From IMG/VR virus record IMGVR_UViG_3300037882_003154, positions 57,374 through 121,373 of that record: a stretch of 64,000 nucleotides of DNA; one strand, 5' to 3'. The notes under the pieces are model-generated. The model ran no database searches. It was given only the letters and a program-made list of their open reading frames with translations, and was not told where the DNA came from. The translations under genes and the position numbers were made by a program. Each line of letters starts with the position of its first letter. The stretch's first letter is position 1. This document shows positions 11,383-62,325 of this stretch, in pieces. Source of the stretch: a virus.

Positions 11383-12408
11383 TTAGCCTGTATATACCGT
11401 GTTCGCTGCTTGATAGAATAATTTGTTCCAAGTTTCTAGATATTGTTCTAGACCACATTTACTTATAACTGTTTCTCTAGCCCTTTTGCCCATTTCATCA
11501 CACAGCTTCGGGCTGTCTAGCAATTGCTTGAGCCTTCTTCGCATTGTACTTTCATCATTGGTTACAAATGCATCATATTCGTCTGTAAAAAATTCTGGAA
11601 TAGCACAAGTTGCTGTGGTTACTATACCAGCCCCACAAGCTGCCGCTTCTAACAATGCACAAGGGATTGGTGAAATTAACGATGTATTAACAAATACTTG
11701 GCAGGCTCTATAGTGATTAACAAGTTCATCTAATGATTTTGCCGCCTCAGAAAGACCGGGAGTAGCCCCCATTGGTTTAACTGGAAGACCTTGGGTTATT
11801 CTCTTCCAAAGATTGAATCCGCAAGGCTGATCCCTATTTATCCAATCATTAACAACAGCCCCAATGGTCTTGATTTTTGGGATGTTTTCGTCTGGGCAAA
11901 ATAGTTCTGTGTCTACAGTATGTGGTATAACTATAGAATTTGATTCGTCCCACCCCCATTGTTTTCTACTCCAGTCTGTGATAAAAACATTTATATCACC
12001 ACTAAATGATCTTAGTTGTTGCCTCATTATTGGAGACCAAGTATCGTATGGGGCTGTGTGTTCAGCTTGTATAATGTTTAAATGATATATTTTTTGTAGC
12101 TGCTTAAAAAACTGATATTGACCAAATCTATTTTCTGACAATATAAGGTCAAAGCCTACATCTTTGGGTATTTGGTCGTTACCAAGATTTCTGTCTAGAA
12201 GTACAAAGTTGGCTGGTAGTGGGGCATACTCAGAATTCCATCCCTTGAAATTTTCTGTTTGTACCAAATAGAAATTGTGACCAGTCTTAGCATATTGACT
12301 CTGAACCCTTTCATGGACCGGACTACAGAGCACATTTAATTTATCCTTAGGTTTTCTAGTAGCCTGCCGTAATACCGATCTCATGCCATTAATTTGCATT
12401 GGTAGCAT
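11383..12408 (-). CDS. Glycosyltransferase family 4 (GT-B)
   Basis: VFVNTSLISPIPCALLEAAACGAGIV (EX7-type motif). Exact start uncertain. Confidence 0.85.
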   Translation of the reverse strand: MLPMQINGMRSVLRQATRKPKDKLNVLCSPVHERVQSQYAKTGHNFYLVQTENFKGWNSEYAPLPANFVLLDRNLGNDQIPKDVGFDLILSENRFGQYQFFKQLQKIYHLNIIQAEHTAPYDTWSPIMRQQLRSFSGDINVFITDWSRKQWGWDESNSIVIPHTVDTELFCPDENIPKIKTIGAVVNDWINRDQPCGFNLWKRITQGLPVKPMGATPGLSEAAKSLDELVNHYRACQVFVNTSLISPIPCALLEAAACGAGIVTTATCAIPEFFTDEYDAFVTNDESTMRRRLKQLLDSPKLCDEMGKRARETVISKCGLEQYLETWNKLFYQAANTVYTG

Positions 12409-13540
12409 CCTCTAATAAGAGATTCTTAATGCGTTCACCAACAACCTTCTTATTAAACTTCTCAAATATATTCTTGACACATCTTTCTGTCTTTTGTTCT
12501 CTTAGCTTTTTGTTCTCAAAAGCCTCTCTCATGGCTCTACGCAAGGCACCAACACTAACCTCATACCAATTTTCATCAGCCCTATACATATCAGGAAGTT
12601 CTACATTTATAGCCCCAAAGCATGGTTCTGAACTACCAGCAACAAGCCAAGCTGTATCGTCATTTAAATAATCCATCATACCACCACATTTACTAGCGAT
12701 AATTGCCTTGCCCATTGCTGCTGATTCAGCACATGGTATGCACCACCCCTCTCCTCTAGAAGCATTAACAAAGCAATCACAGGCATTATACAAAGAATAC
12801 AGGGTTTCATCATCTAATTTATCGGTAACGATGTATTCTCTATGATATCCACCTGCTGATTGATATAGTTTTAAACCATCTTTAACTTGATTACAATAAT
12901 CCGCACATCTTTTTGCAGTTTCTTGCACAGAGACGCCAGGAATATTCACCTTAAATAAGAGCCCCACCCTTTCTTGTGGATGAAACTCAGAATGAAAAGC
13001 CTTAACAATAGCCCCTAGGTTCTTCCTTCTGTTAAATTCGCCCACAAAATAAAACATAAACATACCATCTGCCCCAATTGGTAGTTTATTATATGATCTT
13101 TGAAACTTTTCGGTATCTATGGCATGACCAACATAATACACTGGTTTATGTATTTGTTGATTGTGATGGTGTTTTTCTGTTAGAATCTGGTATTGAAAAC
13201 TGTTAGTAGCCCAAATCTCATCCATTAGATTAAGATGGGTATGCCAATTCGGTCCATGAACACTGTCTGTCTCAGACTCGAACATTGCTATATTTTTCTT
13301 AAAGCCACCATGATATTGCATAAAATGGGGCAAAGTATATTGGATTACTACATCACAATCACTACTATTCCTCTGTTCTAGTTCAAGGATCCTTTCCGGT
13401 AATTTTGATGAAGCATCATTAAACCTAACAGGTCTAATTACCAAATCAATACCAACAGAATCCATAGCCTCTATGTAGGATAAGGCTGCTGATGAATAGC
13501 CGGTTCCATCTCTGTAATTAGATATAAAGAGGACTTTCAT
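12389..13540 (-). CDS. Glycosyltransferase family 4 (GT-B)
   Basis: FNRRKNLGAIV, CFVNASRGEGWCIPCAESAAMGK. Confidence 0.85.
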   Translation of the reverse strand: MKVLFISNYRDGTGYSSAALSYIEAMDSVGIDLVIRPVRFNDASSKLPERILELEQRNSSDCDVVIQYTLPHFMQYHGGFKKNIAMFESETDSVHGPNWHTHLNLMDEIWATNSFQYQILTEKHHHNQQIHKPVYYVGHAIDTEKFQRSYNKLPIGADGMFMFYFVGEFNRRKNLGAIVKAFHSEFHPQERVGLLFKVNIPGVSVQETAKRCADYCNQVKDGLKLYQSAGGYHREYIVTDKLDDETLYSLYNACDCFVNASRGEGWCIPCAESAAMGKAIIASKCGGMMDYLNDDTAWLVAGSSEPCFGAINVELPDMYRADENWYEVSVGALRRAMREAFENKKLREQKTERCVKNIFEKFNKKVVGERIKNLLLEDATNAN

Positions 13541-13541
13541 A

Positions 13542-13748
13542 TTACTCAAAATTAACCGCCCTTGGATCTATCTCTCTGATTACCCTATTATTTCTTTCGT
13601 TTTCAAGCTGTAGTCTAATTATGTCATTCTTTGCTTTCAGATCAAAAATCTGTTTGGACAAAAAAGTAATTAAACATGTCTGTAGTATAAAACACAAAGA
13701 AATAACAATCACTTGGACTTTAAACATCCCACAGTTCACCCCGTTCAT
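13542..13748 (-). CDS. Small membrane-anchored coiled-coil protein
   Basis: Hydrophobic VQVIVISLCFILQTCLITFL followed by heptad-like segment; fills the gap between two GT genes. Confidence 0.5.
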   Translation of the reverse strand: MNGVNCGMFKVQVIVISLCFILQTCLITFLSKQIFDLKAKNDIIRLQLENERNNRVIREIDPRAVNFE

Positions 13749-13764: not shown

Positions 13765-15504
13765 TTATGTTCCACACAAAAACTCCTTATGATTTTCAAT
13801 ATTACTATCTGGTTTAGCATGAGTAATATAATAGGGCTTTTCTCTATTCTCTATACCACATCTTACCTTTTCCCAATTATTGATATTATTTCTCATATCA
13901 AATAACTGTTGCAACATATTATTAAGCTGGAAAGGCTCTGGTGTTGGACGAATTCCCACCATCGAAAAATCATTAATATACATATTGCCGCCATTAACTA
14001 TTTTGCCACCATATGTAAGGCTCTTAACAAGATTAAGCGCAAAATATGTATTGAGCTTTTCTGGCATTCCCAGGACATTCACAATAGCCCAATCAACCAT
14101 CTGAGACATGGATATATTAGATGGATATGTTGTGACAGGATTGTGTAATTTTGGTGGTGATTTCCAGGTTAATCTCCAATCAATGGGCTCCACACTATCA
14201 AAATATGCCATCCATTTTTTCGTTGTCTCTTCCCAATTAAAATGTTTCTCAACACACTTTCTGGTATCAAATCCACGCTTTTTTCTTAATGACTCCGGCA
14301 ATGAGAAAAATTTGATGAGTATATCTACTATTGAATCTGGGTCTGGCTTAGCCCTATGTGTATGTGTTGTTACATCTCTTGATTTAGACAAAAGCTCTAT
14401 TGGATATGCCTTGCATTTATTTATAAAGTCAATAGTACCAGAATAGTTAGTAACAGCCAGTGGTATGCCACACGAAGCCGCTTCTACACAAGGGATGCCA
14501 AACCCCTCTGAAGAAACTGGCTGAACATATAAGTCCATCAAATTATATATAACGCCTAGCTGTTCAGGACTAATGCCATGTTGTGTATTAGGCAACGTGG
14601 CTCCTGGCTGACCACAGTGAGGACAGAACACCCTACTATCAGCCCATAATTCCACAAATATATTGTGGCAATTTCTGCACAAATAGGTAAATAATACCTT
14701 GTGCATTATATTTTCTTCTTGTAGAATTAGTGGTAGGTTCCACCCAAGATCTGGATAAGAAGTATGACAATATAGATAGGTTCTTTGCCCCAAATCTTTA
14801 TTGCTTTTTTCACAATAATCAAGGAATTTTCTAAAAGCCTGAAATAGGTCGGGAAACAGTTTGCGAGCCTGGTTTCGCATCACAGTTCCAACAATATTGA
14901 TATTTTTACCAAACCCAAATTTTGCTTTGAGACCCTGTTTATCAAGTATTGGATTAAAGGTCTTAAAATCACCACCTGGAGGATTGGCTGATAATATTTT
15001 GAGAGACCCGCCGGTTTGGTTTTCTAGTAGACACTTAGCCCATTCAGTATATGTAAAGAGACAGTCCGCCTCCATCATTTGACCTATCCAGTCGGTGGCT
15101 TGTGGCTCACCATCGACGGTTGGCATATAGGCTATTTTATAGAGTGGTCTAAATGGAGAAGAAAACAGATGGGTGCAATACCAAGAATCGCTGATATCAA
15201 ATACTATATCTGGTTTAAAGTCAAGTACAACATCTTCATATCTCCATCCACCAAATTGTGCAAATCCATCTGCATTGTGTTGTGCTATACCGGCTTGGTC
15301 ATTGGGTTCAGGTGCATTAGGATAGACTCGCCAAGGTATAGAATAAGTTCTTTGGTCTGCCAGTGTACAGTATGAGGCGTGTTCCGCAATACAAAATTTA
15401 TTGGTAGCATAGAGCCTATCCAATAGATTTTTGTAATACACAGCATAACCACTAGACAAAAAAGTAGCTTCGCTTCTAGCCAACAGCCTTAATTTTCTAG
15501 TCAC
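13765..15504 (-). CDS. Glycosyltransferase family 4 with internal Zn-ribbon
   Basis: VMRNQARK, EGFGIPCVEAASCGIP; inserted CRNC..(x)..CPHC. Confidence 0.85.
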   Translation of the reverse strand: MTRKLRLLARSEATFLSSGYAVYYKNLLDRLYATNKFCIAEHASYCTLADQRTYSIPWRVYPNAPEPNDQAGIAQHNADGFAQFGGWRYEDVVLDFKPDIVFDISDSWYCTHLFSSPFRPLYKIAYMPTVDGEPQATDWIGQMMEADCLFTYTEWAKCLLENQTGGSLKILSANPPGGDFKTFNPILDKQGLKAKFGFGKNINIVGTVMRNQARKLFPDLFQAFRKFLDYCEKSNKDLGQRTYLYCHTSYPDLGWNLPLILQEENIMHKVLFTYLCRNCHNIFVELWADSRVFCPHCGQPGATLPNTQHGISPEQLGVIYNLMDLYVQPVSSEGFGIPCVEAASCGIPLAVTNYSGTIDFINKCKAYPIELLSKSRDVTTHTHRAKPDPDSIVDILIKFFSLPESLRKKRGFDTRKCVEKHFNWEETTKKWMAYFDSVEPIDWRLTWKSPPKLHNPVTTYPSNISMSQMVDWAIVNVLGMPEKLNTYFALNLVKSLTYGGKIVNGGNMYINDFSMVGIRPTPEPFQLNNMLQQLFDMRNNINNWEKVRCGIENREKPYYITHAKPDSNIENHKEFLCGT

Positions 15505-16417: not shown

Positions 16418-17014
16418 TTACTTCATTATTTCAATAAAACGCTTTGGATCTGATAGAACTTGTTTTATCCTATCATATCCCTCTACGACATTTAACTTTT
16501 GGGCTAATTTATCTGTGCTCTCATTTAGACCATTTTTAGATACCTCCAGTAATACATTTTGAAGTGACGCTTGTTTGGTGTTGTTCGATTTGTCTAATTC
16601 AAGCTGACAAAAATCTAGTATAGATTGGGCTCCACTAGATATTGTTAGTAAATCACCGCGTGTCGATATAAGTTTAACTAAGTGAAAACTGTATTTTACC
16701 AGTAGTATTAAGGATGCCATGTTGATATATAAGAAGTATCCACATGCATATATTGGAATATCATGGTGAGATTTTCTAGATATATCATTATTATAAGTGG
16801 TCTCTTGTACTATCGAACACATGTTGTCTTGGAATAATAGTGTGTTTACCACACATATCTTGTTGGTTAGATGTGGTACAAATAGTGTTATGTGTTCATA
16901 TTTGCTCTTTTTAGTTCTGGTATTTGTTTCTTCGTTTAGACTATACAGCTTAATGATACTACATGTGTAGTCATTGTCTTCTAATATCTTAATAATCTCA
17001 GATTTAAATTTCAT
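16418..17014 (-). CDS. Hypothetical protein coupled to the dnaE C-terminal gene
   Basis: 198-aa ORF; TAATG overlap with the dnaE-C stop. Confidence 0.6.
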   Translation of the reverse strand: MKFKSEIIKILEDNDYTCSIIKLYSLNEETNTRTKKSKYEHITLFVPHLTNKICVVNTLLFQDNMCSIVQETTYNNDISRKSHHDIPIYACGYFLYINMASLILLVKYSFHLVKLISTRGDLLTISSGAQSILDFCQLELDKSNNTKQASLQNVLLEVSKNGLNESTDKLAQKLNVVEGYDRIKQVLSDPKRFIEIMK

Positions 17015-19644
17015 TATATCTGTATAACTTCCATTATGGTGAGTTTATTATTAAAATTAGTTCTATTTCCAACCACAATTACCGAATTGTTTTCTACTAG
17101 TAGATCACCATATTGGGCTATTTTATCCCCAAACATTGTAGCCCCATCAACCATACCAGTCTCATCAAAAAAATTAATAAACAACATTTTTTGTCCGGTA
17201 TTTTTGCCAGCCCTTATTTCATATTCTGACACCCTGGATATCTGACAGGCTATAGCAATTTGTTGTGTTCCTATGCCATTATTATAGTCTGCACAGGTTG
17301 AATTGGCAATAGAAATATCTTTTGAGTTTAGTTCCGACACCGAAACCGCTATTCCCAAAAGTTTTTCTTCATCGTTTGCCATAGAAACAATTGTGTCTTC
17401 CATAGAATAGGGTGGGCTCTCTAGGGACTTTATTATATCATTGACAATAACTTGTCTATTTTTATTTTTGGATTTAGTATTATGCAATGCATCCAAGAGC
17501 CCCTGGTACTTATCACAATTAGTAATAATACTGGTCTGTTCGCCATTACTTAGTTCTTGCCATTTTGAATATTCATAACACATTAGGGTCCTGGTCATAT
17601 TAAATGGAAGAGATCCACACTTAATCATATTCTCTATGCCAGTCTTATTAACATTTGTCGCTACTAAGCACAGGAACTCCAACCAAGACAGTTGTGTTAT
17701 GTTTTTGCCAGTATTTGATATGGCTTCTCGTAATTTTGATATAACAGAATCACCGACACCCCTAATATCTCTAAGCCCAAACCTTATACACCCATTATGT
17801 ATATGGAAGTCAGATTCCATAGTTATGATAGATGGTGGTAATACCTTTATACTAAATCTTTTACAGTCGTCTATGAGCTCTTTTTTCTCTTTTTTGGGAT
17901 CGAGTCTTTCTTTGGCATATTTTAGATAAGTTTTAAAGAATTCCAGTGGATAGTTAGCTTTATAATATGCTGTGTAGTATCCTATATGGGCGTACGCCAC
18001 ACTGTGCGACAGGTTAAACGAGTATCTTTGGCTTCTCTTTATATTATCCCATATTGCCCTGGCACTATCATCATCAACAACGCCATGACTCTTGCACTTA
18101 TCTATAAAAGTTGTCTCGATTTCCGCCATAAGTTTTGGGAGCTTCTTGCCAATACTGTTGTGTATGACCATCCCATTGGCGATAATCCAGTGTATTTGTT
18201 CTCTTGGTCTGCTTCTATCTAAATTGTCTACTGTAAAATCATAGACATTTTGTTTACCAAACTTTGGTCTGATTTCTTTGACAGCGCCGTGGTCGATATC
18301 TCTTTGTTTTTTGGTATTTGATAATAGATCGCCTATATTAGATATCATTTCCTCTGACATATATTGAGATAAAATAGGATCCTTGCTTATCTTGTATATA
18401 GATGCCACATCATCGAATATCATCCTATATTGCTGGCTTTCTTTGGCTTTTTTACACACAATTTTTGTGTATATATTCTGTATGCTCAAAAGGAGCTGCA
18501 TTTGTTTTGCTAATTTTTTGGACTTAAAGATAATATATACACTATTTTTTATTGCATGTCTTTGTAAACCACAAGATAATATAAACCCCAGAGCCCTATT
18601 AATGGTGGCGATATCAGCCCCAAGAATAAATCTGGGTAGATATTTTTTCGTAGCCGACTTTGCACAGTCTTGCAAGAGTGGTGCTAGCCTTTGTCTTTCT
18701 GCATATCCTATCCTTAGCTGATTTTTGTTATAGAATGTGGGCTTTTTCCCAAAGACCCTCAGATACAAGTCTGAGTATTCACTTAGTATGTGTTCACTAC
18801 AGTGTGAAAAAAAGCTCTTGTCTTTCGCCCCTTTACCAAAATAATAACCAGAATATACTATCGCCCCCACTAATGTGTATAGATCTTGGGTCTTTTCTGT
18901 ATCGGTCAATGCTGTATTATATATATGGGTTTGATCACCACCCTCAATAATATTCTGTATGTTTAATATTGAATTATACAAAGAGTCTTTAGACTTTATG
19001 AATCCACCCTTTGTTATTGAGTAAATTTTATGATTATGTGTACAGGCGATTGACATTCCATTATTTAATACTATCTCGTGTACTTCTTTTTTATCACTTA
19101 GCCATATATCATATATTTGTACCCAGACGAACTCTTTCATATTAGGGTGTATTGATAGAAACGAATCATTCTTATATTCAGCTTCTAAGATCTCTTTTAT
19201 TGTGATCCACCCCCTAGTCTTAGACAAAAACATAGTGTCGTCAGTAACGCATTTTCTAAGAGTCTCTGATTCAGCAAGAGTGAACCCGGCTATATCCCTG
19301 GATATTTGAATAGCCTGTTCCTGAAAAACCAAAATGCCCTGTGTCTTTTTCAAGATGGGCTCTAGTGCGGGGTGCACATATTCTACCGGTTTTTCTCCAT
19401 TTTTTCTCATACAATACACATCTGTAAGAGACTTATTATCTAACTTAGACTCTAAGCAGCCGGGTCTTATAATAGATATAATATCAGACAGTTCTTCGAT
19501 AGATCTTGGTTTGGCTTTTTTACAATACCTAGATCCCAACCAATTTTCTAGCTGAAAAACACCTTTGGTATGTCCCTCACATATCATATCCCATGTTTTT
19601 GTGTCATCTAGTGGGACCGACATTAGTTTTTCGGTACTATTCAT
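17014..19644 (-). CDS. dnaE: DNA polymerase III alpha, C-terminal half (fingers, HhH, OB-fold), intein-containing
   Basis: PLDD..TW..GVFQLE, IRPGCLE, GILVFQEQAIQI, YSFNLSHSVAYA, IRFGLRDIRGVG, final OB-fold. Start moved to MNSTEK. Confidence 0.9.
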   Translation of the reverse strand: MNSTEKLMSVPLDDTKTWDMICEGHTKGVFQLENWLGSRYCKKAKPRSIEELSDIISIIRPGCLESKLDNKSLTDVYCMRKNGEKPVEYVHPALEPILKKTQGILVFQEQAIQISRDIAGFTLAESETLRKCVTDDTMFLSKTRGWITIKEILEAEYKNDSFLSIHPNMKEFVWVQIYDIWLSDKKEVHEIVLNNGMSIACTHNHKIYSITKGGFIKSKDSLYNSILNIQNIIEGGDQTHIYNTALTDTEKTQDLYTLVGAIVYSGYYFGKGAKDKSFFSHCSEHILSEYSDLYLRVFGKKPTFYNKNQLRIGYAERQRLAPLLQDCAKSATKKYLPRFILGADIATINRALGFILSCGLQRHAIKNSVYIIFKSKKLAKQMQLLLSIQNIYTKIVCKKAKESQQYRMIFDDVASIYKISKDPILSQYMSEEMISNIGDLLSNTKKQRDIDHGAVKEIRPKFGKQNVYDFTVDNLDRSRPREQIHWIIANGMVIHNSIGKKLPKLMAEIETTFIDKCKSHGVVDDDSARAIWDNIKRSQRYSFNLSHSVAYAHIGYYTAYYKANYPLEFFKTYLKYAKERLDPKKEKKELIDDCKRFSIKVLPPSIITMESDFHIHNGCIRFGLRDIRGVGDSVISKLREAISNTGKNITQLSWLEFLCLVATNVNKTGIENMIKCGSLPFNMTRTLMCYEYSKWQELSNGEQTSIITNCDKYQGLLDALHNTKSKNKNRQVIVNDIIKSLESPPYSMEDTIVSMANDEEKLLGIAVSVSELNSKDISIANSTCADYNNGIGTQQIAIACQISRVSEYEIRAGKNTGQKMLFINFFDETGMVDGATMFGDKIAQYGDLLVENNSVIVVGNRTNFNNKLTIMEVIQI
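18157..19251 (-). mobile_element. Cis-intein (365 aa) with degenerate LAGLIDADG-like core in dnaE-C
   Basis: Begins C(VTDDT) after ETLRK, block B ACTHNHKIY, ends VIHN followed by Ser (SIGKK). Excision restores the conserved LRK/SIGKK motif. Confidence 0.9.
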
Positions 19645-19651
19645 TGTATTA

Positions 19652-20323
19652 TTATGATACAAGTGTGTCTGGGGTTTCTTCGTCATTACCAAAAGCCCCC
19701 GCAAATTTAGCAGCCTTGGATTTTTTTCTTTGCCACTCTAAAAATCTAACAGCAATGGCTTTGGTATCTAGCACATCTTGTAGCGCTTCGTGTGCTTTGC
19801 CGCCCGCATCTATACCAAAAAACTTTCTTAGATAATCTAGGTTGTATCTGTAGGGTTCTTTGAGGCTCTCAAATGAAAACCACATCATTTGCATTGTATC
19901 TATGTGATATGGGCTGAATAGTGTTGGTCTATTAGTTTTATCTACCGGACCAAACTCTAAGCAAAGTCTATCAAAAATGATCTTGTCAAACCCTATGATA
20001 TTATGACCACATAGTATGGGACGGTCCCAAGTAGATTTGCCTTTAGAGAATTTATCTACAAATTTTACAAAATCAGACCACACTTCGGATATAGACGGGG
20101 CTTTTTCTAGCTGTTCTATGGTCTTTTTATTAACATCTAGGGCTTGCTGCTCTACTGTGGCAAAGTCGGTTGGTCTGATAAGAGAATAGAATCTAGATTC
20201 TTTTTCTTCTTGTAGAGTTCTGCTGTCTAATACTATGGCGGCAAGCTCTACTGGCTGACATGTGTAGGGGTTTGCTGATGATGTTTCAAAATCAGCCACT
20301 AATATTTTGTTAAAATTAATCAT
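19652..20323 (-). CDS. DEDDh 3'-5' exonuclease (DnaQ-like)
   Basis: ADFETS (ExoI), GHNIIGFD (ExoII), HEALQD (ExoIII). Confidence 0.9.
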   Translation of the reverse strand: MINFNKILVADFETSSANPYTCQPVELAAIVLDSRTLQEEKESRFYSLIRPTDFATVEQQALDVNKKTIEQLEKAPSISEVWSDFVKFVDKFSKGKSTWDRPILCGHNIIGFDKIIFDRLCLEFGPVDKTNRPTLFSPYHIDTMQMMWFSFESLKEPYRYNLDYLRKFFGIDAGGKAHEALQDVLDTKAIAVRFLEWQRKKSKAAKFAGAFGNDEETPDTLVS

Positions 20324-21094: not shown

Positions 21095-21972
21095 TTTGCC
21101 CCATTCATTTTAATATAACTGAATATGTGTGCTATTACATCAACACTCCAGCCATTGCCAATCGCTATCCTTCGTTGAGCATCCGAGATAATGGACGTAT
21201 AGTTATCTGGTAGTTGTTGTAACCTTTCTAGTTCTATACAGTTCAAATTGCCTATCTTGCCATTATCAAATAATAGCTTGATTTTCCCACTGCAATTAGA
21301 TAGTATTGTGCGAAACTTACCATCTAAAAGACAATATCTTTGGTCTTCCCAATAGTTATTCCCACAACCATCCTTTTTTGTATATTCATAATATAGCGGC
21401 TTTTTTTTTGTTGATGCTATAACATCCGTGTCTAGCCATTTTCTTTTATCACTTCTGTCGTCGGTTATTATATCTCTGACCACTATATTTTTGTCTTTTG
21501 GTTGTTCAATCCCAGAAACATTGGTCCAATATAATCTTCTTCTGTGTTGTGCCGATACTAAAGCAGAGTTTATTTCTATTGGCTGTACACCCATGTAGTC
21601 CGATATTATATCAGACCACTCTTTTTTCATAACAACATTTTCTAACAGAAAATATCTTGGCGATATCTCTTGTAGAAGACGAATATATTCAAAAAATAAT
21701 TTACCGCTAGTACCATCCATACCCTGTTTTTTACCACTACTACTGAATGATACACAGGGGCTTCCACCAATTAATAGGTCTGTCTTGGGCAAATTAACAG
21801 CAGAAATAGCCGATATATCACCAAGCTGTATCGTGTGTGGGAAATGATATTGGGTTACTTTTATAGCATGTTTATTAATTTCTGATGCATAATAATTATC
21901 ATATCTTATATTAGCTCTGTGCAATGCAAGTTGACCACAACTAATACCATCAAATAAAGATAGAACATTCAT
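21091..21972 (-). CDS. DNA (cytosine-5) methyltransferase
   Basis: LSLFDGISCG (motif I), GGSPC (IV), LLENV (VI), QHRRRLYW (VIII), IGNGW (X). Confidence 0.9.
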   Translation of the reverse strand: MNVLSLFDGISCGQLALHRANIRYDNYYASEINKHAIKVTQYHFPHTIQLGDISAISAVNLPKTDLLIGGSPCVSFSSSGKKQGMDGTSGKLFFEYIRLLQEISPRYFLLENVVMKKEWSDIISDYMGVQPIEINSALVSAQHRRRLYWTNVSGIEQPKDKNIVVRDIITDDRSDKRKWLDTDVIASTKKKPLYYEYTKKDGCGNNYWEDQRYCLLDGKFRTILSNCSGKIKLLFDNGKIGNLNCIELERLQQLPDNYTSIISDAQRRIAIGNGWSVDVIAHIFSYIKMNGAK

Positions 21973-23879
21973 GGCGATACATTTCTTTGTATTTCAGCTA
22001 ACTTAGATAATGCCGAAAGCCCAAGGCAATCTAATTTAAGAATTCCAAGACTTTCTGCATCTCTCATGTCTATGTATATTATTTGTCTATCACTGCTCTT
22101 ATCATGCCCCATCGGAACTATATCTACTAATGGGACCGGAGAAACAAATAGGGCTGATGCATGTTTAGACATAGCCTTAATTGTCCCCTCAAGTCTTATT
22201 GCCTGTTTGAAATATCTAGCATATTTACCAACTATAGCACCACCCTCATCTATAGAGCACCACTCTGATAGCTCCTTTTGGTTATTTTGCAATGACCATA
22301 GAATTATACTGGGATCTTCACCATCTTCTTTCATCTCCTGTAGTTCGTCGGCAATGGCTGCTTCATCGGGAATGTGTTCGGTAATTTTATTCATTTCTTC
22401 AAAGCCACAAATGTCGTGGGCTCTTAATACATCTTTAAGAGCCCCTCTGCCTTTGAACTTTGAAAACGTACATATTTGTGCTACTTGTTCTATTCCATAT
22501 TTATGTTCTATGTACTCTATTACTTTGTGACGATCATCTATTGGGAAGTCTGAATCAATGTCTGGCAGGTCTATTTTCTTCTTGTCAAGTCTTGCAGGAT
22601 TAATGAATCTTTCAAAGATTAAGCCATATTTTATTGGGTCTATCTCAGTAATGTTCATTAAGTAGCACATCAAAGAGCCAGCACAGCTACCACGAGAAGG
22701 TCCCACAAGTATGCCATGATTTTTAGCCCAGTTGATATAATCTTGAACAATCAAAAAGTAATCAGACAAACCATAAGGAGATATTACCCCAATTTCGTAT
22801 TTAATTCTGTCTACATACTTTTGCTGTTCTTCTTGAGCAATGCATCCAATGATTTTTTTTCTCCATCCATCTCTGCATAAGTGTGTTAAATATTCATTGG
22901 AATCCTTGTGTTCTTTTGGTATGCCAAATTTTGGTAAGAAAGGAGTATTACTTAATGAGTATGTCTCACACTTTTCTGCTATTTCTAATGTATGAGATAT
23001 CTCTTCAAGAGTATTATTGGCTAACATCTCTTGTGGTGATGGGATATGATAATTGTTAGATTTAAAAAACCCACTAAGTCCAAATTCTTCATCATTATCC
23101 AGAGCCCTCTGTATCTTCTTAAAATTGGTCTTTAACATCGTACATAACAAAACCCTTTGATCTTGAGCATCTTCTTGTCTACAATAGTGGGCATCTGCTG
23201 TAGATACACAAGGTATATTGTTTTTTTTGCCAATTTTTCTGAGACAGTCGGCTATTACATTTTGAACAGGAAGATTTTCCCTGTCTATTAACTGTATTTC
23301 TAAGTAAAAATTTTCTTTACCAAATATTTCTATGTGTTTTTGGGCTAGTTCCAGGGCTTTGTCATACCAATCGGGGACAAGTAATTGTTCGGCTTCTTTG
23401 GTGGTATTAGCCCTATAAGACAGTTTTGGATCTGCAAATAATATATTAGCCATTTGTGACCCAGGATGACCACTGAAACACAATAGATTGCCCATAAATC
23501 CACTAAATTGTTCTAGCTGTAATCTGGGCTTATAGTAAAAGTTTTCCTTTAGATTAGAAAATGAAACAGCCTTAATAAGACTTTGCCAGCCCATCTTATT
23601 CTTAGCAAGAACGACCAAGTGTGCTAGCTGTCTATTTTTTTGGGTCTTAATAGATGGGTGATCATTAGACAGATAAAATTCACACCCTAATATGGGTTTT
23701 TTATTGGCTTCTAAGAACAGTTTATTAAAAGCAAATGCCTCTGATACAGTACCATGATCTGTAATGGCACATCCCGGCAAACCAATTTCAGTTATCCTAT
23801 TTAGGATGTCCTTAGGCTTGCTAACACCATCTAGTACAGATGCGTGGCTGTGGGTATGAAGACTAAAATAAGTGCTCAT
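21969..23879 (-). CDS. dnaE: DNA polymerase III alpha, N-terminal half (PHP + catalytic palm/thumb)
   Basis: HTHSHASVLDG, ITDHG, TADAHY (PHP); GPSRGSCAGSL, FERF, PDIDSDF, SKHASA, KLDCLGL, then a stop codon. Confidence 0.92.
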   Translation of the reverse strand: MSTYFSLHTHSHASVLDGVSKPKDILNRITEIGLPGCAITDHGTVSEAFAFNKLFLEANKKPILGCEFYLSNDHPSIKTQKNRQLAHLVVLAKNKMGWQSLIKAVSFSNLKENFYYKPRLQLEQFSGFMGNLLCFSGHPGSQMANILFADPKLSYRANTTKEAEQLLVPDWYDKALELAQKHIEIFGKENFYLEIQLIDRENLPVQNVIADCLRKIGKKNNIPCVSTADAHYCRQEDAQDQRVLLCTMLKTNFKKIQRALDNDEEFGLSGFFKSNNYHIPSPQEMLANNTLEEISHTLEIAEKCETYSLSNTPFLPKFGIPKEHKDSNEYLTHLCRDGWRKKIIGCIAQEEQQKYVDRIKYEIGVISPYGLSDYFLIVQDYINWAKNHGILVGPSRGSCAGSLMCYLMNITEIDPIKYGLIFERFINPARLDKKKIDLPDIDSDFPIDDRHKVIEYIEHKYGIEQVAQICTFSKFKGRGALKDVLRAHDICGFEEMNKITEHIPDEAAIADELQEMKEDGEDPSIILWSLQNNQKELSEWCSIDEGGAIVGKYARYFKQAIRLEGTIKAMSKHASALFVSPVPLVDIVPMGHDKSSDRQIIYIDMRDAESLGILKLDCLGLSALSKLAEIQRNVSP

Positions 23880-36365: not shown

Positions 36366-36707
36366 TTAGGGCATTTTACCAGTTTCAATGTACTTTTCTT
36401 TTTGTTCTGTGTTTAGTTTGCCCAGCTTATTAAGCTTTTGTCTTTTGGCTTTTCTTTTTGGGTCTTCTATGGGCGGCAATGTACTTCTGGCATTTTCCAG
36501 CTCATATTTGCCCATCTTTTGTGTGTTTCTATCTGCTTGATGTCCTAGCGTTTTGGGCTCACCAATAATAGCAGCATAAACACTATATACTCTATACAGT
36601 TTGTGGGCTTTGCATTGTGGGCACTTTTTCTTGGGCTTGTCGTGATACCCTTGTTTTATTTCAAATTCAAAAGAACAGAAATCACACTTATACTGGTACG
36701 TTGGCAT
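36366..36707 (-). CDS. FmdB-family Zn-ribbon protein
   Basis: MPTYQYKCDFC..FE..CPQC. Confidence 0.85.
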   Translation of the reverse strand: MPTYQYKCDFCSFEFEIKQGYHDKPKKKCPQCKAHKLYRVYSVYAAIIGEPKTLGHQADRNTQKMGKYELENARSTLPPIEDPKRKAKRQKLNKLGKLNTEQKEKYIETGKMP

Positions 36708-36907: not shown

Positions 36908-37588
36908 TTATTTTTCTAACCTTTCTAAAATGGTGGATATAAGACTATTCCTTATTATATCCTTATAATCGAATTCAAAAATTCCAATATCATCAACATT
37001 TTTTAGTTTTGCCAAAATTTCTTGAAAAGCCCCGGATTCATATTTAGATAAATCGCTTTGATTTATATCCCCATTAATTATCATTTTAGAGTCTTTGCCA
37101 ATTCTCGTCAGGACCATTTTTAATTGTCCAAAAGTACAATTCTGTGCTTCATCAACAATAACGAAAGAATTATGAAAATTTCTTCCACGAGCATAGGCGA
37201 ACGGAAGTGTCTCTAGGGATTTTTCATTGGTCCACTGTACTATTTCGGTATATGAGGCGAACTTCTTAACTTCTGCTAGCACAGGAGCCATATAAGGCGA
37301 TAGCTTCTCTTCATAACTACCTGGGAGGAAACCCAGGCTTTCACCAGACTCTACCACTGGTCTCATAATAATTATATTATCAACTATCTTGGCAACAAGA
37401 TAATGTACAGCCAACCAAGCGCTAATTGATGTTTTACCAACCCCACTAGGACCATTGATCAGTGTTATCTGATTTTTAATGATAGTATCTATAAGAGACT
37501 TTTGGGCTGGGTTCTTGGGAACAAGCCTATTTCGTTCGGGCTTACTAGTCTCTTCTTTTTGTGCTTTGGTTTGCCTTTTTCTAGTCAT
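36908..37588 (-). CDS. phoH: PhoH-family ATPase
   Basis: GPSGVGKT, RPVVESGESLGFLPG, RGRNF, VDEAQN, TRIG, GDINQSD. Confidence 0.95.
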   Translation of the reverse strand: MTRKRQTKAQKEETSKPERNRLVPKNPAQKSLIDTIIKNQITLINGPSGVGKTSISAWLAVHYLVAKIVDNIIIMRPVVESGESLGFLPGSYEEKLSPYMAPVLAEVKKFASYTEIVQWTNEKSLETLPFAYARGRNFHNSFVIVDEAQNCTFGQLKMVLTRIGKDSKMIINGDINQSDLSKYESGAFQEILAKLKNVDDIGIFEFDYKDIIRNSLISTILERLEK

Positions 37589-37617: not shown

Positions 37618-38619
37618 TTATAAATCGTCCACTAAAGCCGACGCACTTCTATAAGATCTTTCTTTTCTCTCAAAAAATGCCCCCATGCTTAATCCATCTA
37701 CCACCTCAGATAGCCAGGGAAATGGATTTTTATTATTAGGAAATCTATATTCAAGACCAATAGATTCTAGTCTTCTATTTCCAATATATTGTACATATTC
37801 TAAGAACATTTCGCTGGTTAGTCCCAGAACTCCAATCGGAAGTGTTTCTTGGGCGTACTCTATTTCTAGCTCAACAGCATCTTTAATGTGTTGTGTAATA
37901 GCATCTTTAAAGTCTTTGGTCCATATTCCAGGATAATCATTTTTTATTGCATCAATAAGATAAACACCAAATTGTATATGTAGTGTTTCATCCCTAAGTA
38001 TAAACCTGATTTGGTCAGAACACCCCTGCATTTTATTCTGGCGCCCAAGAGCCAATACCATAGCAAAGGAAGAAAAGAAGAAAATGCCCTCACATATAAT
38101 ATAGTATGTTATGACATTTCGTAAGAAGTCTTGTCGATGTGATGGATCTTGTATATCAAAGTCTCTGTCTATAGCTGATATGGCTGCTTCTAAAAAATTA
38201 TTCTTTCTTTTTATAGATTTTATGTTTTTATATGCTTTGCTCACTTCTTCTAATGGTAAAGACAGGGCTTCGGTACATACCAAAACGGTCTCAGAATGTA
38301 GGCTTTCTTCAAAAGCCTGTCTGAGAATGTACAATCTACAAGAGGGCTCAGCAACATACTTGAATATGTTTAAGAGCAGATTTTGACCAACCAGTCCCTC
38401 ACTATTACTAAAAAAGCCCAAAACCCTCTTAATTAACAGTTTTTCATCGTCGGTAAGAGCACTACTATTCCACTGTTTGATGTCCTCTGACATAGATACT
38501 TCAGAGGCGACCCAATTATTCTGGATGGCTTTTTTCCATAAATCATATGAAAACCTGCTTCGCATTTCAGTCAATTGCAAAGCCCCAAATCCCTTGGTGT
38601 CTAATATTTTCTTTGACAT
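37618..38619 (-). CDS. nrdB: Ribonucleotide reductase small subunit (R2), class Ic-like
   Basis: NNWVASEV, GFFSNSEGLV, QAFEESLHSETV, ICEGIFF, RDETLH, FFERKERSY. Confidence 0.92.
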   Translation of the reverse strand: MSKKILDTKGFGALQLTEMRSRFSYDLWKKAIQNNWVASEVSMSEDIKQWNSSALTDDEKLLIKRVLGFFSNSEGLVGQNLLLNIFKYVAEPSCRLYILRQAFEESLHSETVLVCTEALSLPLEEVSKAYKNIKSIKRKNNFLEAAISAIDRDFDIQDPSHRQDFLRNVITYYIICEGIFFFSSFAMVLALGRQNKMQGCSDQIRFILRDETLHIQFGVYLIDAIKNDYPGIWTKDFKDAITQHIKDAVELEIEYAQETLPIGVLGLTSEMFLEYVQYIGNRRLESIGLEYRFPNNKNPFPWLSEVVDGLSMGAFFERKERSYRSASALVDDL

Positions 38620-38621
38620 GT

Positions 38622-38786
38622 TTAATATTTATCTGTTGGGCTCAAATTATGTATTATTGTAAGTTCGCACAACACAATCACAAGAGTAATAATAATAAAG
38701 GTGATAAGAGCAACCACTATACTAAAAATCACACACGATATGTCATCATGCTTATTGATGAAGTTTTTTATTTTTTTTACTGACAT
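38622..38786 (-). CDS. 54-aa single-pass membrane peptide (not in ORF track)
   Basis: Manual translation MSVKKIKNFINKHDDISCVIFSIVVALITFIIITLVIVLCELTIIHNLSPTDKY; fills the nrdA-nrdB gap exactly. Confidence 0.6.
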   Translation of the reverse strand: MSVKKIKNFINKHDDISCVIFSIVVALITFIIITLVIVLCELTIIHNLSPTDKY

Positions 38787-41212
38787 GATTCACACCCAGG
38801 GTCATTGATGCTACAAAATGCTGGCAACTTATTGAGCTCTTGGGAAACCGGAATATTAACTGTTGATTTTTCTACTCTGGATGCCACAGTATTTCTAAGA
38901 TAATATGTGGTTTTAAGTCCACTGTCATAACAATACATATACATATCAGACAGTTCTTTCAAAGAACTGCCCTTATTATATAAGTTCATACTGATGCCAG
39001 TGTCAATCCATTGTTGTCTAGCCTTGGTGGCATCTATTAACTTAAACATATTCCTATCAAAGGCTGTCTTGTATTTATCTTTATATTTTTGTGGTATGTT
39101 TTCTAATCTATTAATATCACCATCTACAGCCTTAATAGCTTCTGACAAAGCGGGCGACCAAAGCCCCTCCTTTTTCATATCATTAACAAAATGCTCATTA
39201 ATAATATAAAAATTACCAGACTTATTTTCATATACAAACAAAACACTATAATTGGGCTCTATTGATTGTTCGACCCCACAAATATAGCTTATGGTTGCTG
39301 TGGGCTGAATACAATTAACCTGACAATTTCTAATACCATTGGTAGCTATTATTTGCCTAGCGGTTTCCCATCTATGCTTGCCAAAGGAAAAATGATGAAT
39401 TTCATCTTTAATACCAACCTCAAATGGAAGTTTGCCATTGCTCCATTCGCTATTGGGATAGTTTTCATAACACCCACGTTCTTTTGCCAGAGCCCCAGAA
39501 GCACAAATAGAAGAAAAGGCTATATTTTCGGCTATCTCACTAGCCAATCTGATTCCATCATCCGAGTCATAGACTATATCTAACATATGGCAGACATCAT
39601 GGAACCCCATAACGCCAAGCCCTATTGGACGATTAGCAAGATTAGATTTTTTACCCTCTTGTGTTGGGTAATAATTGATGTCTATAGCATTATCCAGGGC
39701 TCTTATGGCTAGTTGTATAGAGTGATCTAAGATTCCCCACCTAATTGGATTAGCGGCGTCCCCCCTGTTTACAAACTGTGTTAAGTTTATAGCCAACAAA
39801 TTACAATTAAAGCTTTCACCATACCCAATCTTTGCGCCCTCTGGATTATACTGTGACACATGTGTATGTCCCAAAATTTCGGTACATAAATTACTAGATC
39901 GAACAATGCCACAGTGCTTATTCATATATCTAGCATTAGATGGGTCTTTAAAAGTAATCCAAGGATATCCATTTTCAAAGAGGTTTTTGAGTATCTTTTT
40001 CCACAGATCTTTTGCCTTAATAATCCTGTGTCTTATCTCATTTTTATTGGCTAGTAATATGTATTTGTTATATTCTTCATTAAACTTTTCACCATATGTT
40101 TCATTTAAAGACCCAGTTTCACTTGGGCAAAACATATACCAGTCTTCGTCTTTTTTTATCTTTTCAAAAAAGATATCTGGGCACCAAGCAGCTAGATTAA
40201 GATCGTGTGTTCTTCGTCTCTCTTCTCCAGTTGTCTTTCTTAAATCACAAAACTCTTCAAAATCTAAGTGCCAGGGCGACAGATAAATGCACATAGCTCC
40301 GGGTCTTTTGCCAGCCTGATCTACCGCAACCATAGTATCATTGTATATTTTTAACCAAGGAACTATACCAGAGCTACTACCATTAGTGCCCTTAATATGA
40401 GATCCAGTAGCCCTAACACTAGAAAAATCAACACCAAGCCCATAAGAATACTTGCTTTTACGAGCTTCCTGGTGCAGGGTTTCAAATATAGAGTCTATGG
40501 AGTCGCCCACCGTTACTAGATCACATGAACTTAATTGTGAGTGCCTTGTGCCAGAATTGAATAATGTAGGTGTTGCTGGCATGAAATATAGCTGACTTAT
40601 GGCATGGTATATCTCAATAGCGACTTTTTCTTTTTCTTTTTCATTATAACACAACCCCATAGCCACTCTCATAAAGAAAGCTTGAGGGGTTTCCATTCGA
40701 GCCCCATTATATTGTATTAAATACCTATCATACAGTATTTGGGCGCCGTGGTACTTCAGTAGATTGTCCCTAGAAGGCTCTAGGACTCGATTTATGACCT
40801 TCAGATTGAAGTCTAGGAGTCTAGAGTCAAGTATGTTATTTTTTATTAAAAGCTTTAAATTAGAAATAAATGACTTGTGATATTGTAATCTAAAAACATC
40901 AGAGTCTGCTCCCTCATCAAAAACCTCTTTATACAGAGAATTTAGAAGCAGTTTGGCGGCTACATAGCTATAATTTGGGTCTTTCTCTATCTTAGAGCGA
41001 GCCGTTAGCACCAACTCCCTGTGTATATCCTTTGTGGATATTTTATCAAAAAGATTTAGGTGGGCATCTAAGACTATTTCAGAAGCCGACACATCTGCAA
41101 TACCGACACAAGCCCTTGACACAACCGCATTGATTTTGTCTACATTCAATTTTTCCAGTTTACCACTGCGTTTTTTGACTGATATTGGCTTTGCTTCTTG
41201 CTTTTGTGACAT
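38777..41212 (-). CDS. nrdA: Ribonucleotide reductase large subunit with ATP-cone
   Basis: VKKRSG ATP-cone, PATPTLFNSG, QLSSC, SSNLCTEI, CNL, PTATIS, C-terminal CESC. Confidence 0.95.
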   Translation of the reverse strand: MSQKQEAKPISVKKRSGKLEKLNVDKINAVVSRACVGIADVSASEIVLDAHLNLFDKISTKDIHRELVLTARSKIEKDPNYSYVAAKLLLNSLYKEVFDEGADSDVFRLQYHKSFISNLKLLIKNNILDSRLLDFNLKVINRVLEPSRDNLLKYHGAQILYDRYLIQYNGARMETPQAFFMRVAMGLCYNEKEKEKVAIEIYHAISQLYFMPATPTLFNSGTRHSQLSSCDLVTVGDSIDSIFETLHQEARKSKYSYGLGVDFSSVRATGSHIKGTNGSSSGIVPWLKIYNDTMVAVDQAGKRPGAMCIYLSPWHLDFEEFCDLRKTTGEERRRTHDLNLAAWCPDIFFEKIKKDEDWYMFCPSETGSLNETYGEKFNEEYNKYILLANKNEIRHRIIKAKDLWKKILKNLFENGYPWITFKDPSNARYMNKHCGIVRSSNLCTEILGHTHVSQYNPEGAKIGYGESFNCNLLAINLTQFVNRGDAANPIRWGILDHSIQLAIRALDNAIDINYYPTQEGKKSNLANRPIGLGVMGFHDVCHMLDIVYDSDDGIRLASEIAENIAFSSICASGALAKERGCYENYPNSEWSNGKLPFEVGIKDEIHHFSFGKHRWETARQIIATNGIRNCQVNCIQPTATISYICGVEQSIEPNYSVLFVYENKSGNFYIINEHFVNDMKKEGLWSPALSEAIKAVDGDINRLENIPQKYKDKYKTAFDRNMFKLIDATKARQQWIDTGISMNLYNKGSSLKELSDMYMYCYDSGLKTTYYLRNTVASRVEKSTVNIPVSQELNKLPAFCSINDPGCESCQ

Positions 41213-52347: not shown

Positions 52348-53514
52348 TTAAAAGAGTGAAGAAATAAGTTGGTCGGCTGTGTTTTCCCAAGAAAACCTTT
52401 TAGATGTTTCAAGGGCTCTTTGAGAGATTGTTTGATTGACTGACTTGCTGATGTCTGAATGAATGTGTTTCATACAGGTGATAATATCATTTTTTTGTTT
52501 TGGACCGATATGAGCCCAATTGCCCTGATTAAAGAAAAACTTTCCATCATAGGCTGGTTCAACCTCATCTATATCAATAAGATAGCAGTTTTCTTCTGTA
52601 CAAAATTCTGTGTGACCACTATAATTAGTAGCTATTACTAATTTGCCCATAGCCATAGCTTCCAAACATGGTAAATCCCATCCCTCAGCCTTACTAATAG
52701 ATAATACACAATCTACCTGTGACATTACCTGGGCTATTTCTACTTGGGTTTGGAATCTAGGTAATATTTTGATTTTTGAGCCCAGTTCAGAATTTTTGTA
52801 AAGTGATAACCACTCTTGCATTTCTTCTTGTGTTACGAAAAAAGAGTGTGGTGTAAGCCAGAGTTCAACGGAATCATTCTCGTTAAACGCATCTGCGAAT
52901 ATCTCATGTATTATATCGTGAGACTTGCGAATTTCGAGCTTGCCCGGCAAATAAAATACTGTTTTTACATTTGGGTCTCTAAAATTTGTGCTAGGCTCTG
53001 GTCGAATATTTTCATTGAAGATATCACGATCAACACCAAGTGGTATTATGTGATAGTTATTTACATCAATTTCTTTACAGTTGTTCAATACATCGGCAGC
53101 CCACCGACTACAAACAAATATTTGGTGGAGCCCATTTAAACTGTTAATTTCATGTGGTGCAAACTTATCTAGTTCAAATATAGGAAACCCCACTCTCCTA
53201 CCATACCCTACAGATTCATGTAGTAAGTGCTGATGAAATATTCTTAGTGTTGGAGCCCTACGATCATAGTTACATTTGTTCTGTATGGTTGGTACTAGAT
53301 ATTGTTCAACCAATTGATTTATATAGTTGGGATCTTTGGATATATGTGACATATGCCATTCTATTGTCCTTTGTTTATCGTTGATGTTTGGTATATCTAT
53401 TGGAAATAGTGACACATTAACACCATTATCTACTAATGCCCTAAGAATATTCCATCCGACAAGCCCATAGGACAATGGGTTTATTGGAGCCATTAAATTT
53501 AGATTCAGGTTCAT
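52348..53514 (-). CDS. Glycosyltransferase family 4 (outside the main island)
   Basis: GKLEIRKSHD, SKAEGWDLPCLEAMAMGK; similar to 12389..13540. Confidence 0.85.
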   Translation of the reverse strand: MNLNLNLMAPINPLSYGLVGWNILRALVDNGVNVSLFPIDIPNINDKQRTIEWHMSHISKDPNYINQLVEQYLVPTIQNKCNYDRRAPTLRIFHQHLLHESVGYGRRVGFPIFELDKFAPHEINSLNGLHQIFVCSRWAADVLNNCKEIDVNNYHIIPLGVDRDIFNENIRPEPSTNFRDPNVKTVFYLPGKLEIRKSHDIIHEIFADAFNENDSVELWLTPHSFFVTQEEMQEWLSLYKNSELGSKIKILPRFQTQVEIAQVMSQVDCVLSISKAEGWDLPCLEAMAMGKLVIATNYSGHTEFCTEENCYLIDIDEVEPAYDGKFFFNQGNWAHIGPKQKNDIITCMKHIHSDISKSVNQTISQRALETSKRFSWENTADQLISSLF

Positions 53515-61251: not shown

Positions 61252-62325
61252 TTATATTACGGTACCGGTAAACCCAGGATCAACCAGAACATTTCTAAAT
61301 CCCAGAGCTTGTGCTATATCAGCCCTAAGATCTGGGTCTTTTGGCAGTATCTTTAGGTATTTGGTGATTTCCTCCATTCCATATTCAAGTGAGTGTTGTG
61401 GAAAAAGGTAGGGTGATATCTTTTGTGAAGACACAACATAATTTCTTTGGTCTGGGTCCTTGTCATTTGATATGTTTACTGGTATGCCACCTAGGTACAT
61501 AGAAATTTTAGTTACTAGTTCAAGCTTAGAACAATTGATTGAATCATTACCCAAATTATAGACTTCATTAGTTGGTATGGGCGACATTGTATATAAATGT
61601 GCAAAGCTATTCCTTTCGTCTCTAGTGAGCAATGATGCAAAGACCACGGCTACATCTTGAACATGGATAAAATTTCTCTTGGCATCTGGCTCAAATATGT
61701 TGATTTCATTATTAAAGTAACCCCTGTACACTAGGTCATTGACTAAAAGATCGAACCTCATTCTTGGGGCGATCCCAAATAATGTTGCCAATCTAAATAT
61801 CACCCAGTTTTTGGCATTTTTAATAATTGTTTCTTCGGCTTTTAATTTTGTTTCACCATATGAAGATAGGGGTTTGAGTGGGGTTTCTTCCGTACACACC
61901 CCATCTGTATTACCATATCCACTGTTCGTATTAGGATATACTATTAGTGGTGGATTTGGTAAATCTGATAGACCCTTTACCAACCAATCTATGGTTTCAA
62001 AATTAACTCTATTGACAAATTCCGTGCCATAAATACTATCATAGACATTACAGACGGGCATACCAACAAGAGCATGTAATAAACAGACCGTACATGGATA
62101 CCCATTGGTTTGTTTGGCTTCATTGATTATTTCTTGACACGACTCAGGAGAAAAAATATCTAGCCTTTTGACCCTAACATTGTCTCCAAAGCCAAGTGGC
62201 ACATGGTATTGATCATAAGTGAATGAATCAAACACTACTATATCATCTGAATCACCAAACCCCAATATCTCAATAAGTTTTGAACCAAGATAACCACAAC
62301 CACCTGTAATAATTATTTTTCTCAT
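61252..62325 (-). CDS. Extended SDR NAD-dependent epimerase/dehydratase
   Basis: ITGGCGYLGS, YPNTNSGYG, YGETK, RLATLFG, RFDLLVN. Confidence 0.85.
   Translation of the reverse strand: MRKIIITGGCGYLGSKLIEILGFGDSDDIVVFDSFTYDQYHVPLGFGDNVRVKRLDIFSPESCQEIINEAKQTNGYPCTVCLLHALVGMPVCNVYDSIYGTEFVNRVNFETIDWLVKGLSDLPNPPLIVYPNTNSGYGNTDGVCTEETPLKPLSSYGETKLKAEETIIKNAKNWVIFRLATLFGIAPRMRFDLLVNDLVYRGYFNNEINIFEPDAKRNFIHVQDVAVVFASLLTRDERNSFAHLYTMSPIPTNEVYNLGNDSINCSKLELVTKISMYLGGIPVNISNDKDPDQRNYVVSSQKISPYLFPQHSLEYGMEEITKYLKILPKDPDLRADIAQALGFRNVLVDPGFTGTVI

Follow-up and report, generated by a model that had tools for sequence, protein, structure and literature searches.

A Class Ic-Like Ribonucleotide Reductase Beta Subunit with Valine at the Radical-Tyrosine Position Encoded by an Uncultured Virus

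Ribonucleotide reductase (RNR) gates the dNTP supply, and its genes are among the commonest metabolic genes in phages. The cofactor need of a phage RNR thereby links viral replication to trace-metal availability. In the class Ic beta subunit (R2c) of Chlamydia trachomatis, W51 and Y222 serve the reduction of the Mn(IV)/Fe(IV) intermediate that arises during cofactor assembly, and the Y222 equivalent is described as conserved among R2c proteins (PMC4118035). The Phe that R2c proteins carry at the radical-tyrosine site is replaced by Leu, Ile, or Val in some R2c sequences, according to the Hogbom 2010 census as cited in PMC3824934. Because the census, as cited there, lists these residues, a Val at the site has literature precedent.

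A "novel RNR clade" was recently described in GOV 2.0 viral populations and named "subclass Ic-like" (PMC12918982, bioRxiv, February 2026). It comprises 269 GOV 2.0 alpha sequences, corresponding to 1.44% of viral RNRs; the alpha subunits are nearest to NrdAz, and the beta subunits lack the radical Tyr and have Ile or Val instead. The clade was kept apart from class Ic since Ile/Val does not match the Phe/Leu of the reference sequences, and it is stated to have no characterised member (PMC12918982). Its abundance is given as anti-correlated with predicted iron in the figure text; according to the discussion, no single-metal pattern explains the abundance, and the cofactor is left open as mixed, other, or none (PMC12918982). 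The Val/Ile clade is thus already known and not a new category, and the beta subunit described here, which shares with it the location on a viral contig and a Tyr-less site with Ile/Val, is one further member. The lineage is abundant in ocean viromes, with no cultured host-phage system and no biochemistry.

The window, i.e., the whole stretch of 64,000 nucleotides that was analysed, lies within a 133-kb IMG/VR virus record with an estimated completeness of ~85%. The nrdB gene (37618..38619, minus strand, like all features of the pair given below) is complete, open across 333 codons, and present as a single copy in the virus record. Its product, a class I RNR beta (R2) subunit of 333 amino acids (here named NrdB), covers 281 of the 281 profile positions of PF00268 (Pfam, E 3e-76). 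Residues were mapped by HMMER alignment to C. trachomatis R2c (1SYY) and by BLASTP to E. coli NrdB. The protein has the complete set of six metal ligands, namely, Glu74, Glu105, His108, Glu177, Glu211, and His214. The first of them, Glu74 (codon GAG, 38398..38400, in GFFSNSEGLV), falls on Chlamydia E89 in the HMMER alignment and on D84 of the E. coli class Ia protein in BLASTP. The two metal-binding motifs, Glu105-x-x-His108 (38296..38307; Chlamydia E120/H123) and Glu211-x-x-His214 (37978..37989; Chlamydia E227/H230), are invariant, the former in all alignments made. Glu177 corresponds to Chlamydia E193 and is directly preceded by a cysteine (Cys176-Glu177, TGT GAG, 38089..38094).

The radical-tyrosine position is occupied by Val112 (codon GTT, 38284..38286, in EESLHSETV), which aligns with Chlamydia F127 (HMMER) and E. 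coli Y122 (BLASTP). Trp36 (TGG, 38512..38514) is the electron-relay tryptophan, equivalent to Chlamydia W51 and E. coli W48 and invariant in the alignments. The C-terminal radical-transfer tyrosine, Tyr323 (TAT, 37651..37653), corresponds to Chlamydia Y338 and E. coli Y356, is Tyr in 120/120 relatives, and is located in a tail ending in DDL. A sequence-only reading of this DNA had pointed to Glu as the first ligand, to Val four residues past the ligand His, and to a retained relay Trp and C-terminal Tyr. In the alignments all of this holds, with GAG codon 74 at 38400..38398 and GTT codon 112 at 38286..38284 exactly where they had been placed. What that reading overlooked is the missing equivalent of Chlamydia Y222, which is Phe206 in NrdB (Phe206-Ile207, TTT ATA, 37999..38004).

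A phmmer search of the PDB returned C. trachomatis class Ic R2c as the closest solved structure (1SYY and 4D8F, E ~3e-89; 303 bits to 1SYY). A second Phe-bearing R2, 6Y2N, was also among the best matches, with ordinary R2s far behind. The AlphaFold (AF2) model of NrdB (pLDDT 89, input alignment of 83 sequences) superposes best on the Mn(II)/Fe(II)-loaded Chlamydia NrdB 4M1I (TM 0.90, rmsd 1.1 Å, 44% identity), and the top PDB matches of the model are all R2 proteins. The C-terminal tail is disordered in the model (pLDDT <50), as expected for an alpha-binding tail. NrdB and the Chlamydia protein are alike in fold, in the Glu as first ligand, in the other five ligands, in the equivalents of Trp51 and Tyr338, and in a redox-inert residue at the Tyr site. 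They differ in that NrdB has Val for Phe127, Phe for Tyr222, Val for Tyr129, and Cys for the Met before the third ligand.

The relation to described RNR subclasses was examined by several features. As in class Ic, the first ligand is Glu and not Asp, the residue at the radical-tyrosine position is redox-inert, though neither Phe nor Leu, and the protein branches with Glu+Phe/Leu sequences; the Tyr222 equivalent of class Ic is lacking. Class Id, whose members retain the Tyr, use an Mn2 cofactor, and belong to the NrdAi/NrdBi lineage, does not fit, as position 112 is without Tyr, and the weaker, Tyr-bearing R2 chains that we take to be class Id (6CWO, 8DQ3-5, 6SF4, and 5OLK) score only ~43 to 53 bits versus 303 for Chlamydia R2c. 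Class Ie, which is metal free with a DOPA radical, has lost metal ligands, keeps the Tyr in modified form, and requires NrdI, does not fit either: six ligands are present, there is no Tyr at the site, and no NrdI is found in the virus record. R2lox resembles NrdB as a ferritin-like protein without radical Tyr and has an Mn/Fe cofactor. R2lox proteins lack the C-terminal Tyr, however, and are not RNR subunits (PMC3824934), whereas NrdB keeps Tyr323 and has nrdA adjacent; no R2lox chain occurs among the 60 PDB matches listed. A literature search for a published "class If/Ig" RNR yielded nothing relevant. NrdB is a Tyr-less, Ic-like beta subunit, and by analogy its cofactor is most likely Mn/Fe. 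The sequence-only reading of a class Ic-like R2 stands insofar as the protein is Tyr-less, has Glu first, is closest to Chlamydia class Ic in sequence and modelled fold, and lies inside the Glu+Phe/Leu radiation; its Mn(IV)/Fe(III) cofactor is taken from relatives only.

The nrdA gene (38777..41212) is located 157 nucleotides upstream of nrdB on the same strand and encodes a class I alpha subunit of 811 amino acids with one N-terminal ATP-cone, an all-alpha domain, and a barrel (Pfam ATP-cone, Ribonuc_red_lgN, and Ribonuc_red_lgC). The Chlamydia alpha subunit, in contrast, carries three ATP-cones. BLASTP places Cys230, Asn441, Cys443, Glu445, Cys470, and Tyr770-Tyr771 on C225, N437, C439, E441, C462, and Y730/Y731 of E. 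coli NrdA, and the C-terminal Cys807/Cys810 on the E. coli C-terminal Cys pair. NrdA thereby retains the catalytic and radical-transfer residues in full. The best PDB match is 5IM3 (E 7e-209), presumably P. aeruginosa NrdA of the NrdAz group. By sequence comparison, nrdA-nrdB is a complete class I alpha/beta pair that has every residue required to bind the metals, to pass the radical between the subunits, and to catalyse the reaction, and no Tyr at the radical site. Held against the description of the viral "subclass Ic-like" clade (PMC12918982), the pair shows a viral contig, Val112 in beta, and 5IM3 as the best structural match of alpha.

Conservation of the Val/Ile site was analysed in a collection of 5.8 billion proteins. 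All 120 nearest homologues have Val (98) or Ile (22) in the radical-tyrosine column, and the first-ligand column is Glu in 120/120. The same two residues fill the radical-tyrosine column in 84 of the 84 IMG/VR viral loci examined (Val 73, Ile 11). In 150 cluster representatives (50% level), the pair of first ligand and radical-site residue is Asp+Tyr in 58, Glu+Phe in 21, Glu+Val in 11, Glu+Leu and Glu+Tyr in 7 each, and Glu+Ile and Glu+Ala in 2 each. A FastTree phylogeny was computed for 124 full-length sequences, midpoint rooted and with the Chlamydia sequence left out; in it, the Val/Ile/Ala sequences fall into a single clade (SH-like support 0.997). This clade is nested in a group of 69 sequences that have only Glu together with Phe, Leu, Val, Ile, or Ala (support 0.88). 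The clade thus branches inside the Chlamydia-type (class Ic) group, and it is viral-looking wherever the context can be judged. Two of its members, the metagenomic, intein-containing R2s P0185 and P0196, have Ala at the radical-tyrosine position. Also, many clade representatives of ~615 to 660 amino acids match in two stretches and appear to bear inteins.

Within the clade, NrdB belongs to a divergent twig. Its only close relative is P0002, a protein of 78% identity encoded on a 2.5-kb contig; the two share a twig with P0003, P0006, and P0023 (support 0.995) and are 53 to 58% identical to the bulk of the clade. In a comparison with the 120 database relatives, NrdB and P0002 differ from the bulk at four second-sphere positions, with Ser instead of Asn (117/120) at position 109, Thr instead of Cys (118/120) at position 116, Phe instead of Tyr (115/120) at position 206, the Chlamydia Y222 equivalent, and Ile instead of Thr (118/120) at position 207. 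Among the relatives compared, Ile at position 207 is found in NrdB and P0002 only; it corresponds to E. coli I234, which we take to line the Y122 pocket. At position 114, equivalent to Chlamydia Y129, NrdB has Val, and 46/120 relatives have Tyr. These residues give NrdB a pocket that is wholly aliphatic or Phe, and the conserved redox-active side chains left to it along the known pathway are Trp36 and Tyr323 alone.

A different feature marks the clade as a whole. Cys176 (38092-38094), directly before the third ligand Glu177, occurs in 116/120 clade sequences; the 19 Glu+Phe/Leu-type sequences and the Asp+Tyr sequences compared all lack it. By this comparison Cys176 appears private to the clade, and Asn109, Cys116, and Thr207 are likewise typical of most members and absent from Phe-type proteins. 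What is new here is therefore the lack of a Y222-equivalent Tyr in NrdB and P0002 and the clade's own Cys176; the former is a modest twist added to a known clade.

Taking these data together, we consider it probable that the phage has an aerobic class I RNR of its own, in which the nrdB product is the beta subunit that generates the radical, acts with the adjacent NrdA, and stores its oxidant on the cluster, most probably as Mn(IV)/Fe(III). The single nrdB of the record, the absence of NrdI from it, and the preserved residues of NrdA accord with this reading. NrdB and the ATP-cone-bearing NrdA would make dNDPs during phage DNA replication. For want of a tyrosine to carry the radical, the dinuclear metal cluster itself would store the oxidising equivalent, and Mn(IV)/Fe(III) is the likeliest form because the nearest characterised relative by far, that of C. 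trachomatis, uses it. In each turnover, the oxidant would pass via Trp36 and Tyr323 in beta and Tyr770/Tyr771 in alpha to Cys443. Maturation of the cofactor would need to proceed without the Y222 relay, as Y222 is Phe206 in NrdB, and may use Trp36 alone or another route.

Several points count against a plain class Ic assignment. The metal identity of the Val/Ile clade is assigned purely by analogy, and NrdB lacks the Tyr that is described as conserved among R2c proteins. The cofactor site is probably not a copy of that of Chlamydia, because Cys176 and, in most members, Asn109, Cys116, and Thr207 are absent from Phe-type proteins. Also, the virus record is ~85% complete, so that an accessory gene may be absent from the assembly.

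If the assignment is true, an enzyme with its oxidant on an Mn/Fe cluster would use only half as much iron as a class Ia RNR, and quenchers of tyrosyl radicals would not affect it. The resistance to NO or other radical scavengers that the sequence-only reading had proposed stems from work on an intracellular pathogen and is unsupported in an environmental phage, where a saving of iron would be at least as plausible. Furthermore, the intact nrdA-nrdB pair offers a ready expression template, and NrdB, as a natural "Y222F-like" variant, can help to trace the path by which the cluster receives its extra electron during assembly.

The private second-sphere signature of the clade also bears on a different cofactor. 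A Tyr-less beta could hold a homodinuclear cluster, either Mn(IV)/Mn(III) as the direct oxidant, as in class Id, or di-iron, in which case the clade would count as a class I subclass of its own. Six ligands headed by Glu do not alone dictate the metal, which leaves room for such a cluster. In agreement with this, the discussion of PMC12918982 leaves the cofactor open, and the rules that lead from structure to metal are stressed as unresolved (PMC4118035). On the other hand, the nearest characterised relative is an Mn/Fe enzyme (303 bits to 1SYY versus ~43 to 53 for the chains taken to be class Id), the clade is nested within Phe/Leu-type sequences, and neither NrdI nor another superoxide-supplying partner was found in the record. 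We therefore regard a homodinuclear cofactor as possible but unlikely. Doubtful, too, is a broader proposal that sees more in the viral Val/Ile clade than class Ic proteins with a smaller residue at the Tyr site. The clade would form its own class I subclass, whose private second-sphere residues permit a particular cofactor chemistry, for example, another metal pair or assembly route. In that case the twig of NrdB (Val112, Val114, Phe206, and Ile207) would be its most stripped-down form, in which Trp36 is the only oxidisable side chain close to the cluster.

Storage of the radical on another side chain, i.e., a relocated Tyr or Trp or Cys176 beside the ligand Glu177, appears very unlikely. Cys176 is the only clade-specific candidate, found in nearly all members and absent outside the clade, but we know of no stable thiyl radical store in any R2. 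Tyr172 and Tyr173 lie one turn before Glu177; they are, however, common to Phe-type and Tyr-type R2s and hence not an innovation of the clade. Moreover, NrdB has lost near-site Tyr residues that other members keep, with Val at position 114 and Phe at position 206.

It is highly improbable that NrdB is a beta-like subunit with a regulatory or otherwise non-catalytic role, or the product of a decaying gene. The lack of the radical Tyr is shared with yeast Y4 and apicomplexan R2_e2, but R2_e2 loses the C-terminal Tyr (PMC3824934), whereas NrdB keeps it along with all six ligands. In addition, nrdB is the sole such gene in the record, lies beside an intact nrdA, and is strongly conserved across hundreds of viral contigs. 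Finally, an assembly or sequencing error in the Val codon, which the sequence-only reading had named as a way to be wrong, has practically no probability left and no point in its favour, because Val or Ile fills the column in 204 independent sequences that come from other samples, P0002 with its 78% identity among them.

We also analysed how widespread such proteins are in viruses. A profile-guided scan revealed at least 483 IMG/VR contigs that encode an NrdB relative, and relatives at 53 to 58% identity with the same Val/Ile were found in Tara, JGI, and ENA marine contigs. In contrast, none of the GenBank phage records (n = 50,697) has a protein with more than 40.4% identity to NrdB, and the top-ranking ones are of the Asp+Tyr type. 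At the nucleotide level, nrdAB had no blastn match among GenBank phages. The best GenBank phage matches, at 37 to 40% identity, are the class Ia NrdBs of the P. putida phage vB_PpuM-Peetri and of a record named "Acinetobacter phage MD-2021a," both with nrdA upstream of nrdB on the same strand. Unlike NrdB with its Val112, they have Asp and Tyr and are of the ordinary tyrosyl-radical type. A Tyr-less R2 is thus routine in uncultured, mostly marine, viruses. The earlier view that it is unusual in a phage applies to GenBank phage records (best match 40%, Asp+Tyr) but not to metagenomic viruses, given the IMG/VR contigs above and the 269 GOV 2.0 sequences (PMC12918982). In the "Acinetobacter phage MD-2021a" record (CAKLQH020000007.1, locus L108), the nrdAB stretch also carries LysR, PhzF-family, and HcpC-like genes; it resembles a bacterial chromosome rather than a phage, and the record may be mislabelled. 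A hot-spring virus of a thermophile, the Aquificae Joseph's Coat Spring virus (BK013346.1; L110:944-1858), encodes an R2 whose first ligand is Glu and whose Tyr site holds Phe, the canonical class Ic-type signature.

Gene neighbourhoods were looked up for seven relatives, of which five are on contigs long enough to judge (P0006, P0013, P0138, P0121, and P0159); P0168 and P0185, on 2- to 3-kb contigs, are uninformative for context. All five judgeable neighbourhoods look viral, with many short ORFs without family match and with genes for SSB, RecA-like protein, DnaB, RNA ligase, thymidylate synthase, and inteins among them. No clearly cellular context of a Val/Ile nrdB was found among the relatives looked up; one cluster member is labelled as an Actinobacteria metagenome-assembled genome (MAG). 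Single-protein scans of genome contigs, with Planctomycetota and Chlamydiota genomes outside their scope, identified no cellular Val/Ile homologue and gave only matches of at most 36% identity, from Gammaproteobacteria MAGs, a Magasanikiibacteriota MAG, Kroppenstedtia, and Paludifilum. An origin of the gene from a PVC host related to Chlamydia was also considered and found no support: the few Phe-type neighbours named by cluster look-up are Bradyrhizobium/Tardiphaga, Falkowbacteria, Nanohaloarchaea, Patescibacteria, and Thermomicrobiales, with no PVC member. On another viral contig, a PSCyt2/PSD1-domain gene adjoins the nrdB of a relative, the one observation that points towards a Planctomycetota host.

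The surroundings of nrdAB in the virus record form a minus-strand replication and nucleotide-metabolism arm with dCMP deaminase, MT-A70 methylase, PhoH, Dam methylase, RecA-like protein, DnaB helicase, and a split DNA polymerase. The GC content is even across the nrdAB region, and a promoter and terminator scan around the genes stayed at chance level. Searches of the record found neither a glutaredoxin nor Terminase_6N, and PHROG scans of ten large ORFs of the left arm gave a weak terminase-like match only. A phoH-like ATPase gene (36908..37588, minus strand; PF02562, E 4e-63) is located directly downstream of nrdB and is followed, two genes downstream of nrdB, by a gene for a 113-amino-acid protein (36366-36707, minus strand) that carries a zinc ribbon of the FmdB type at its N terminus (PF09723, E 1e-10). 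The DNA polymerase (phrog_405, a profile of 1190 positions) is split over two minus-strand ORFs, of which the first (21969-23879) covers profile positions 42 to 613 and the second (17014-19704) positions 742 to 1074, with ~2 kb containing other ORFs between them. Several glycosyltransferases and a nucleotide-sugar epimerase are encoded in the window (12389-13549, 13765-15504, 52348-53514, and 61252-62325, minus strand). A comparable set is present on the viral contig of P0013, which carries a Val-type nrdB together with a sugar-modification cluster of DegT, GFO/IDH/MocA, epimerase, and glycosyltransferase genes.
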